A stretch of 64,000 bases of DNA from a candidate division WOR-3 bacterium (lineage in GTDB: Bacteria; Hydrothermota; Tepidihabitantia; SM23-42). A program made the position numbers and the translations under genes. The notes below the pieces were generated by a model. It ran no database searches. It saw only the letters and a list, made by a program, of their open reading frames with translations, and was not told the origin of the DNA. Shown here in pieces: positions 37,408 to 46,425 of this stretch. The stretch covers positions 1,056,625-1,120,624 of the forward strand of contig CP070686.1 of assembly GCA_020353055.1 (NCBI GenBank), in the 5' to 3' direction. Position 1 is the stretch's first letter. Every line of letters begins with the position of its first letter.

Positions 37408-37592
37408 TCGAAATTATAGTATCAGAAAAAACGCACGTCAAGTCTCTGCAAGAATTGTATCTACCGGTGAAACATGAGGTCGCAGAACGCCTGACAGTTG
37501 ACTTTTCATTAATTCTGATTAGTATTCATCATTCCGTGAAAATAATCATACATTTTTGGTAATTAGTGTTGTTTAGATAAAAAGGAGAATCT

Positions 37593-39116
37593 ATGGCAAT
37601 CGTGTTGGATGGTGAACATTTGACAATCGAAAAGCTTGTCGATATTGCCCGAAACAACGAAGAGGTCCAGATCGCACCTGATTCATTGGGAAAAATCAAA
37701 GAATGCCGCGCCCTGATCGAGGAAAAGATCAAAGTCAAGGAGATAATGTACGGTATCAATACCGGTATAGGTGAACTTTCCGAGGTCGTGCTCAGCGATG
37801 AACAGGTCAAACAATTTCAGAGGTACTTGATATACAACCATGCCGCAGGTATAGGTGACCCGGCGCCAATTGAGCATGTGCGCGGCGCTATGGCCAGCCG
37901 CATAAATGTCATGAGTAAAGGCAAGTCCGGATGTCGACCCATAATACCCCTCACCTATGCCGAGATGTTGAACAAAGGCGTGACGCCCGTGGTCTGCCAG
38001 AAGGGCTCGGTCGGGGCATGTGGTGATCTGGCGCCAATGTCCCAGATTGCCCTGCTTTTGATGGGAGAAGGCGAGGCGTTTTATGAAGGAAAACGCTTAC
38101 CGGCCAGGGCGGCAATGGAAAAAGCAGGCATCGAGATCCCCGGATTACAGGCACGCGATGGTTTATCCTGCATAAACGGATCCAACCTGCTCACCGCGAT
38201 AAGTGCCCTGCAACTTTTCGATATCAACCGCTGGTTGAAACAAGCGGAAATCGCCTGTGCCATGACGCTCGAGGCGCTGATGGCGAACCTCAAACCGTAT
38301 GATACCAGGCTGCACGAGGCACGCGGGTTTGCCGGCGCAGTCAGAACAGCCCGTGCCATCATGAAATGCATAGAAGGCAGCGACCTGCAAACTGGTAAGC
38401 ATAAGATGAAGGTTCAAGATGCATATTCAATGCGCTCCTCACCCCAGGTTATCGGTGCCGCACACGATGCTGTCGCCCACGCAAGAAAGCAGGTCGAGAT
38501 CGAGCTCAACGGGGTCGGTGATAATCCAGTATTCTTCCCCGAATACAAACTTGCGATCACCGGCGCCAATTTTCAAGGAACACCGGTATCGCTGCCCATG
38601 GAAATGGTCGGCACGGCTGTGACCATGGTCTGCGTGCTATCGGAGAGGCGCTTGAATCGTATGACAAACCCCAACCTGAGTGTCGGCCTGCCCGCATTCC
38701 TAACCAGAGGAGCCGGGATGTTTTCGGGATTGATGCTGAGTCAATACACTGCAGACACGCTCATCGTCGAACAACGCATCCTTTCTGCTCCGGCGGCGAC
38801 GATGTCGATACCGGCGGCTGCCGACCAGGAAGACTTCGTTTCGATGGGTATGAACACGGCGCTCAAGAACCTCCAGATAATTGACAATGCATACGGAATT
38901 CTGGGGATCGAATTCATGGCTGCAGCGCAGGCCCTGGATTTCCGTGAATTCACACCGGGCAAAGGCGTCGTTACCGCGAAGAAGACGATACGTAAATACG
39001 TCGAGCATCTCGATGAAGACCGACCATTATATAATGACCACAATAAAATGAAAGAACTGGTCAAGTCGTGTGAAATACTCGACACGGTGGAGAATACAGT
39101 AGGCAGTCTGGGTTAA
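37593..39116 (+). CDS. hutH: Histidine ammonia-lyase family (MIO-dependent aromatic amino acid lyase)
   Basis: GSVGACGDLAPMS aligns to the HAL GSVGASGDLAPLS MIO motif. The rest is colinear with HAL (~507 aa). Confidence 0.8.
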   Translation: MAIVLDGEHLTIEKLVDIARNNEEVQIAPDSLGKIKECRALIEEKIKVKEIMYGINTGIGELSEVVLSDEQVKQFQRYLIYNHAAGIGDPAPIEHVRGAMASRINVMSKGKSGCRPIIPLTYAEMLNKGVTPVVCQKGSVGACGDLAPMSQIALLLMGEGEAFYEGKRLPARAAMEKAGIEIPGLQARDGLSCINGSNLLTAISALQLFDINRWLKQAEIACAMTLEALMANLKPYDTRLHEARGFAGAVRTARAIMKCIEGSDLQTGKHKMKVQDAYSMRSSPQVIGAAHDAVAHARKQVEIELNGVGDNPVFFPEYKLAITGANFQGTPVSLPMEMVGTAVTMVCVLSERRLNRMTNPNLSVGLPAFLTRGAGMFSGLMLSQYTADTLIVEQRILSAPAATMSIPAAADQEDFVSMGMNTALKNLQIIDNAYGILGIEFMAAAQALDFREFTPGKGVVTAKKTIRKYVEHLDEDRPLYNDHNKMKELVKSCEILDTVENTVGSLG

Positions 39117-44742: not shown

Positions 44743-46425
44743 ATGAAGAAAACAAAGACCATCACCGATTACGCGTATAAACCTGTATCCGCACCACACG
44801 GAATCAAAATATCGTGCAAGAGCTGGCAACAGGAAGCTGCGCTTCGGATGCTCCAGAACAACCTTGACCCTGAGGTTGCCGAAAAACCAGAAGAATTAGT
44901 CGTCTACGGAGGAAGCGGTAGAGCCGCTCGTAACTGGGAATGCTACAATGCCATCGTTGATACACTCAAAAACCTCGAGAACGACGAGACACTGCTTGTT
45001 CAATCCGGTAAACCGGTCGGTGTTTTCCGCACCTTTGAGCACGCACCCCGGGTATTGATCGCCAACTCGCTGCTGGTGCCTCATTGGGCAAACTGGGACT
45101 ATTTTCGCAAACTGGAAGCCCTCGGATTGATAATGTACGGACAGATGACTGCGGGTTCCTGGATCTACATCGGCACTCAGGGAATTATTCAAGGAACCTA
45201 TGAGACCTTTGCCGCGAGCGCGCGGCAGCATTTTGGTGGAAGTCTAAAGGGGAAGTGGATCCTGACCGGGGGTATGGGTGGGATGAGCGGTGCCCAACCT
45301 CTGGCTGTTACCATGAATGAAGGAGTAATCCTCGATATCGAAATTGATCCGGCGCGTATCCAGAAGCGCGTCAACCAGGGTTTCTGTGATATCATGGTCG
45401 ACAACCTCGACAAAGCGCTTGCTCTGGTCTTCGAAGCAGTAAAGAAAAAACAACCCCTCTCGGTCGGATTGGTCGGCAACACCTCAGAAGTCGAACCTGA
45501 ACTACTGAAAAGGAAAATCATACCCGATATCCTGACCGATCAAACCTCGGCGCACGATGAGTTGAACGGATATGTCCCCGGAGGCATGAGCCTCGACGAT
45601 GCCAATGCACTTCGCGCACGAAAGCCGGATGAATACAAGAAACGTGCGCTCGAATCGATCGCTATACAGATGAAGGCGATGCTACAGATGCAGAAGGAAG
45701 GAGCAATAGCATTCGACTACGGCAATAACATCCGTGGACAGGCGAAAAAAGCCGGCGTGGAAAACCCTTTTGCAATCCCGGGTTTCGTGCCTGAATATAT
45801 CAGACCGCTATTCTGTCGTGGACGCGGTCCTTTCCGGTGGGCAGCTTTGTCGGGTGAAGAGAGTGATATCCACTATCTGGACGGCGTGGTTCTTAAAATG
45901 TTTGGCGATGACCCTTCGGTACGCCGCTGGATCCAGTTAGCGCAGAAAAAAATCCCTTTTCAAGGTTTACCGGCTCGAATTATGTGGCTCGGATACGGCG
46001 AGCGCGACCGGTTCGGTATGGAGATAAACCGCCTGGTCAGGGCAGGTAAGATCGCCGCGCCGATAGTGATCGGCCGAGATCACCTTGATACTGGTTCAGT
46101 GGCATCACCATACCGGGAGACCGAAGCGATGCTTGATGGCTCAGATGCAATTGCGGACTGGCCCATCCTGAATGGACTGCTGAATGCGGCTTCGGGTGCG
46201 TCGTGGGTTTCAGTACATCACGGCGGTGGAGTTGGCATCGGATACTCGATCCATGCAGGACAGGTGCTGGTCTGCGACGGTACTGATGATATGGACCAGC
46301 GGATCAATCGCGTACTGACCAATGACCCGGGAATCGGCATCGCCCGACACTCAGATGCCGGTTACGAAGAGGCCATCAGATTCGCTCGTGAGAAAAATCT
46401 AAAAATACCCATGGATAAGCCATGA
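44743..46425 (+). CDS. hutU: Urocanate hydratase
   Basis: 560 aa, colinear with urocanase ([13 protein letters not shown]-binding region). Confidence 0.85.

Follow-up and report, generated by a model that had tools for sequence, protein, structure and literature searches.

A hutH-type histidine ammonia-lyase (HAL) gene was identified at positions 37593 to 39116 of the forward strand in the window analysed here, a 64,000-nucleotide stretch of the chromosome of a candidate division WOR-3 bacterium, and its presumed cofactor precursor triad reads Ala-Cys-Gly. The gene probably encodes a working HutH (EC 4.3.1.3), whose 4-methylidene-imidazol-5-one (MIO) cofactor would arise by elimination of H2S where the serine enzymes eliminate water, as judged from sequence comparison and from analogy with an engineered enzyme. 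The cysteine predominates in a very large, widespread HAL subfamily in sediment and anaerobic lineages, and the initial treatment of the variant as a one-off has therefore been abandoned. Most likely, the gene represents a naturally occurring variant of an already known enzyme, with nothing supporting new chemistry.

Textbooks present Ala-Ser-Gly as the precursor of MIO, and the PROSITE signature of the HAL family presumably treats the triad in the same manner. Since a large HAL branch mostly carries Ala-Cys-Gly, a motif rule that requires serine would mislabel functional enzymes. No description of a natural Ala-Cys-Gly MIO triad was found in the open literature searched. Nature offers in this site a clear case of a residue that loses its side chain during maturation. 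The variant is of moderate interest for enzymologists and annotators and of modest practical importance, since no chemical difference is expected between the mature enzyme and its serine form.

The gene, its triad and its active site

The sole long reading frame between 37593 and 39116 on the forward strand encodes a protein of 507 aa, which belongs to a subfamily of PF00221 designated here as the "DLAPMSQ" subfamily after its signature VCxKGSVGACGDLAPMSQ. The triad Ala142-Cys143-Gly144 is encoded by GCA TGT GGT at 38016 to 38024 of the forward strand, with the TGT codon of Cys143 at 38019-38021, and lies in the protein context VVCQKGSVG-ACG-DLAPMSQIA. In the phmmer alignment with the HAL of Pseudomonas putida (1gkm, GSVGASGDLAPLAH), where the residue numbering of the two proteins is identical to approximately residue 220, the triad is aligned to Ala142-Ser143-Gly144 and Cys143 is located opposite Ser143. 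The Ala-Ser-Gly required of HutH is thus replaced by Ala-Cys-Gly, exactly as the initial annotation had read it. A promoter-like TTGACT-16-TAGTAT (37498 to 37525) and a Shine-Dalgarno AAGGAG (37582-37587), both on the forward strand and both matches to consensus only, are situated upstream of the gene, and no intrinsic terminator was detected on the forward strand at its 3' side. The gene is flanked by two minus-strand genes and is therefore probably transcribed alone; a 165-nt metatranscriptome contig covering 37862-38001 is too small for a claim of transcription.

PF00221 matches the protein with 523.8 bits across residues 10-467. The score of the HAL subfamily model NF006871 (529.2) exceeds its cut-off of 524, and that of the hutH equivalog TIGR01225 (494.2) falls below its cut-off of 539.15. 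The NCBIfam models of aminomutases, TAL and PAL all remain far under their cut-offs: TIGR03832 (aminomutase) scores 355 against 501, TIGR04475 scores 311 against 800, NF053541 scores 320 against 700, and TIGR01226 scores 205 against 519. The AF2 model of the protein (pLDDT 95.1) superposes on P. putida HAL (1b8f, 1gkj and 1eb4) with TM scores of 0.93-0.94 and, for 1b8f and 1gkj, with an rmsd of 1.9 Å, and the nearest solved structures share only about 35-41% identity with it.

The residues on which HAL catalysis relies are retained, and they correspond to P. putida HAL numbering as 275=277, 278=280, 281=283, 327=329 and 413=414, with 53, 83 and 195 unchanged. TAL and PAL bear a His-Leu or Phe-Leu selectivity pair at HAL positions 82-83; the WOR-3 protein has Asn82-His83, together with Glu413 within a QED motif of the HAL type. 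The catalytic base Tyr53 (codon at 37749 to 37751, forward strand) is shared by all 87 subfamily sequences. The HAL-specific imidazole-binding residues His83 (37839 to 37841, forward strand) and Glu413 (38829 to 38831, forward strand; P. putida Glu414) are likewise invariant, both in the subfamily and in their alignment columns. The carboxylate binders Asn195, Gln275 and Arg281 as well as Tyr278 are kept in the protein and in 86-87 of the 87 sequences. The roles of the tyrosine base and of the carboxylate and imidazole binders in HAL have been summarised in a preprint (10.1101/2025.08.13.670108). Asp145 and Phe327, which are associated with MIO formation, are invariant in the 87 subfamily sequences and in the alignment, and Ala142 and Gly144 are invariant in the former; HAL mutants at Asp145 and Phe329 were crystallised in a study of MIO formation, according to the titles of the PDB entries.

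Beside the active-site motifs, the subfamily is distinguished by the substitutions F59I, S82N, P135C, L149M, H151Q, C282S, H328Q and H415F. Residue 135 (37996-37998) is a conserved cysteine in the subfamily and a proline in canonical HALs, and residue 282 (38437-38439) is a serine in the subfamily, where canonical HALs have a conserved cysteine after the catalytic arginine; the conserved cysteine positions consequently differ between the two HAL branches.

Distribution and codon evolution of the cysteine triad

When the protein was considered together with its best 120 database homologues (79-94% identity, from metagenome-assembled genomes of WOR-3 and Aminicenantes), Ala-Cys-Gly was observed in 97 of the 121 sequences and Ala-Ser-Gly in 24. 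A scan of species genomes, one per species, with the pattern G-[ST]-x-G-A-C-G-D-L-A-P disclosed the cysteine triad in the genomes of at least 120 species, distributed over many phyla, and all of the 120 matches listed are HAL-family reading frames. Approximately 105 of the listed matches belong to the "DLAPMSQ" subfamily (54-80% identity), and approximately 15 are canonical-type HALs with 34-41% identity to the WOR-3 protein. The hosts of the subfamily proteins with Ala-Cys-Gly include Bacteroidota, Ignavibacteria, Kapabacteria, Acidobacteriota, Gemmatimonadota, Myxococcota, Chloroflexota, Clostridia, Cloacimonadota, Thermoplasmatota and Poseidoniia. In a Bacteroidales branch, the triad is Ala-Cys-Gly in 120 of 120 listed homologues, and a search for a cultured or characterised subfamily member that started from one Bacteroidales protein listed only proteins of metagenome-assembled genomes. 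Across the family, 150 representatives of 50%-identity clusters contain ASG in 124 cases, SSG in nine, ACG in seven besides the WOR-3 protein, and TSG and CSG in one each, with a few representatives lacking the MIO loop. Cysteine occurs in three of about 130 canonical-branch representatives, which implies that it is rare in canonical HALs.

The codon at the middle of the triad was surveyed in metagenome contigs by a pattern that permits any WSN codon, so that cysteine was not preselected. The 120 loci listed, all of the HAL family, comprise TGC (54), TGT (22), AGC (17), AGT (5) and TCN (22), corresponding to cysteine in 76 cases (63%) and serine in 44 (22 AGY and 22 TCN). None of these listed loci has threonine, arginine, tryptophan or a stop codon at the position, though the pattern permitted all of them, and TGA was absent among them as well. 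Within the phylum, 29 of the best 30 loci could be read, revealing 15 with cysteine, nine with serine as TCN and five with serine as AGY.

On a FastTree phylogeny of 98 full-length subfamily members, the middle codon has changed at least 23 times; 13 changes are of the TC-TG type and seven or eight of the AG-TG type, and only two or three are direct TC-AG changes. Most of the changes are therefore exchanges between cysteine and serine, by which cysteine joins both serine codon sets, and because TGY is a single mutation from TCN as well as from AGY, the site appears to drift among three states. Orthologues of at least 79% identity are divided into 98 with cysteine and 27 with serine, with at least four to eight switches on a separate FastTree tree of the close homologues. 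A search for second-site or compensatory changes found no alignment column that tightly tracks cysteine versus serine. These observations are most simply read as a neutral network, with TGY (Cys) as the hub through which the two serine codon sets are connected. The absence of threonine, which is also one mutation away, is what a requirement for side-chain elimination would predict. Selenocysteine at the triad was considered and rejected, as the in-frame TGAs in two WOR-3 HAL matches proved to be plain stop codons.

Pathway context and competing explanations

The genome is assembled as one contig of 2.69 Mb (96.9% complete) and contains exactly one PF00221 gene, namely the HAL gene with Ala-Cys-Gly. 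The gene of the second pathway step, hutU (urocanate hydratase), occupies 44743 to 46425 of the forward strand and encodes the domains Urocanase_N, Urocanase and Urocanase_C, with 912.7 bits to TIGR01228. It is located 5.6 kb downstream of the HAL gene in a separate operon, and comEC, efp, cysS and a HEAT-repeat gene lie between, in agreement with the initial remark that hutU is nearby and non-adjacent. The remark that hutI and hutG are absent from the window was equally accurate: hutI (424 bits) was found about 1.05 Mb from the HAL gene on the same chromosome, where it overlaps by 17 nt the gene of a bifunctional formiminotransferase-cyclodeaminase (FTCD; domains FTCD_N, FTCD and FTCD_C) in a two-gene operon (C1:2144271-2146989, corresponding to L005:883-3601 on the reverse strand). 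No true hutG was found in the genome, and no biosynthetic gene cluster surrounds the HAL gene. Given a single PF00221 gene together with hutU and the hutI-FTCD operon, the route from histidine to glutamate, in its folate-dependent formiminotransferase branch, is complete only with the Ala-Cys-Gly protein as the HAL.

A similar picture emerges from the 151 genomes of the phylum, 43 of which carry the subfamily; hutU is present in all 43, and in 37 of them the subfamily gene is the sole HAL-family member. Most of the genomes that lack the subfamily possess a canonical-type HAL instead. In the class of genome G152, the subfamily is carried by 31 of 101 genomes and is the sole HAL in 15, each of which contains hutU. 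Taken by itself, this co-occurrence has little discriminating power, because nearly all genomes of the groups sampled possess hutU. The 7.2-kb spacing between the HAL gene and hutU is the same in a genome of the same genus with TGC (G149) and in a genome of the same family with Ala-Ser-Gly encoded through TCG (G133). One WOR-3 genus (g33 of family f16, about 15 genomes sampled) has neither a HAL-family gene nor hutU, and nearly all other genera have both.

In the proposed maturation, the loop of Ala142-Cys143-Gly144 would cyclise after folding through attack of the Gly144 nitrogen on the Ala142 carbonyl with loss of water, and the side chain of Cys143 would then leave as H2S where serine loses water, giving presumably the same MIO electrophile as in the textbook enzymes. 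The mature enzyme would deaminate L-histidine, its likely substrate, to urocanate, which could be converted by HutU, HutI and formiminotransferase-cyclodeaminase into glutamate. The functional equivalence of Ala-Cys-Gly to Ala-Ser-Gly is suggested by the free interchange of cysteine and serine and by an engineered precedent, since the S143C variant of P. putida HAL prepared by Langer, Lieber and Rétey in 1994 was reportedly fully active, in contrast with S143A and S143T. No open paper describing the S143C experiment was found, and a companion paper (Langer et al. 1994, Biochemistry 33:6462) appears in the reference list of PMC3903478. The initial suggestion of a possibly functional natural variant can accordingly be worded more firmly: as far as sequences can tell, the variant is very probably functional, being the sole HAL alongside hutU, hutI and FTCD, with invariant active-site residues and interchangeable cysteine and serine.

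The strongest alternative, albeit an unlikely one, is that the "DLAPMSQ" subfamily constitutes a MIO enzyme for another substrate, for instance a modified histidine or an amine resembling histidine, with the cysteine being incidental; urocanate would then be supplied otherwise in this bacterium, or the enzyme would accept both substrates. Such a role would accord with the coexistence of canonical hutH and the subfamily gene in many genomes of other phyla (e.g., G152, G153 and G155), and in the class of G152 a second HAL-family gene is kept by 16 of the 31 carriers. The two genes are even arranged in tandem in G190, G217 and G199, and in the last (L280:585-3809) a canonical hutH (SSG, 667 bits to TIGR01225) and a HAL with Ala-Cys-Gly stand head to tail 135 bp apart; coexisting or tandem pairs could be the result of sub-functionalisation. 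The subfamily's own signature near the active-site motifs and the missed TIGR01225 cut-off point in the same direction, as does the usual position of the gene, alone and remote from hut genes, which it rarely adjoins (4 of about 105 listed species-genome loci and 4 of 116 listed metagenome loci). On the other hand, the imidazole binders His83 and Glu413 and all carboxylate binders are invariant, the subfamily gene is the sole HAL accompanying hutU in the 37 and 15 genomes mentioned above, and the present genome, with its one PF00221 gene, offers no alternative source of urocanate. Moreover, the subfamily HAL does adjoin hutU or a urocanase-like gene in some cases (L007, L012, L023, L101, L167, L171, L203, L209 and G184), which also argues for histidine as the substrate.

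A divergent urocanase-like protein was encountered in these comparisons. It has 680-765 aa, scores about 420-435 bits to TIGR01228 and is extended at the N terminus by about 115 residues, and its gene is the only hutU-like gene in G184, G160, G173, G193, G202, G229 and G151, as well as in the WOR-3 genomes G018, G031, G057, G062 and G082. In G184, the genes at L279:2096-4162 and L279:528-2414, both on the reverse strand, adjoin each other and place the divergent urocanase directly beside a HAL with Ala-Cys-Gly.

The reading of Ala-Cys-Gly as a functional equivalent of Ala-Ser-Gly leaves some room, though rather little, for a cysteine that is actually preferred, either because the loss of H2S might permit faster or fuller maturation in anoxic, reducing cells, or because the subfamily might be a distinct enzyme with another prosthetic group or substrate. 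A preference is conceivable on account of the 63% cysteine in the census without codon preselection and its fixation in whole lineages, and a distinct enzyme on account of the retention of the subfamily beside canonical hutH in many genomes.

It is very improbable that the cysteine blocks MIO formation and that the protein is an inactive relic or a MIO-independent lyase resembling ergothionase or hercynine trimethylammonia-lyase. Relatives without MIO do exist, both among the family representatives and among described enzymes (6s7j), but these have lost the whole triad (GSL---GYL), whereas the WOR-3 protein keeps Ala142, Gly144, Asp145 and Phe327. Strong purifying selection, with 55-94% identity across phyla, and the lack of threonine at the site among the listed census loci are also at odds with a relic. 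Still more improbable is an aminomutase or a tyrosine or phenylalanine ammonia-lyase in which the cysteine marks altered chemistry. Tyrosine aminomutase structures do rank among the top sequence and fold matches, and TIGR03832 reaches 355 bits, but every model of these classes stays far under its cut-off, the Asn82-His83 pair and the Glu413 of QED are of the HAL type, no biosynthetic gene cluster is nearby, and cysteine and serine are swapped with no other change. The initial idea that the cysteine may indicate a different substrate or aminomutase chemistry thus found no support in the specificity residues, the model scores or covariation. Finally, an error of sequencing or assembly in place of a serine codon is virtually excluded by the same cysteine in hundreds of independent assemblies, and contigs from two other studies span the Cys143 codon with no mismatch there among the differences listed (59 further differences being unlisted).

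Comparison with characterised ammonia-lyases

The HutH of P. putida (1b8f and 1gkm) shares with the WOR-3 protein the fold, the length and register at the cofactor loop, and the catalytic, binding and MIO-forming residues. The two proteins differ in that their identity is about 35%, that a hut operon is missing around the WOR-3 gene, and that the "DLAPMSQ" subfamily has S82N, H328Q and H415F. Unlike the cysteine engineered in P. putida S143C, that of the WOR-3 protein occurs naturally and is shared by most members of an entire subfamily. The best match among solved structures is the HAL of Thermoplasma acidophilum (7tqr, E value 1e-88), which is likewise a prokaryotic stand-alone HAL and formed its own MIO in the crystal, as indicated by an X in the deposited sequence; however, it possesses the canonical triad and a PLAH motif and falls outside the subfamily.

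The ergothionase 6s7j and the hercynine lyase Swoo_3913 resemble the WOR-3 protein in fold (TM 0.95) and in their histidine-type binding residues. These trimethylammonia-lyases nevertheless act on betaine substrates and have lost the triad entirely, whereas the WOR-3 protein retains Ala-x-Gly-Asp and Phe327. Family representatives without the MIO loop (P0185, P0232, P0237, P0240 and P0254) show a three-residue deletion (GSL---GYL) and probably belong to the trimethylammonia-lyases; one of them, P0254, is a protein of 2535 aa with its HAL-like domain at residues 620-1097.

The closest natural parallels to the triad itself are the canonical-type HALs with Ala-Cys-Gly, exemplified by that of Aliidiomarina taiwanensis AIT1 (L048), which carry a natural cysteine at the same position with 34-41% identity to the WOR-3 protein. 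Their genes are neighboured by hutU at L048, L071 and L077, by hutI and ftcD at L009, and by all three at L079, which shows that a classical hut operon can accommodate a HAL with cysteine at this position.
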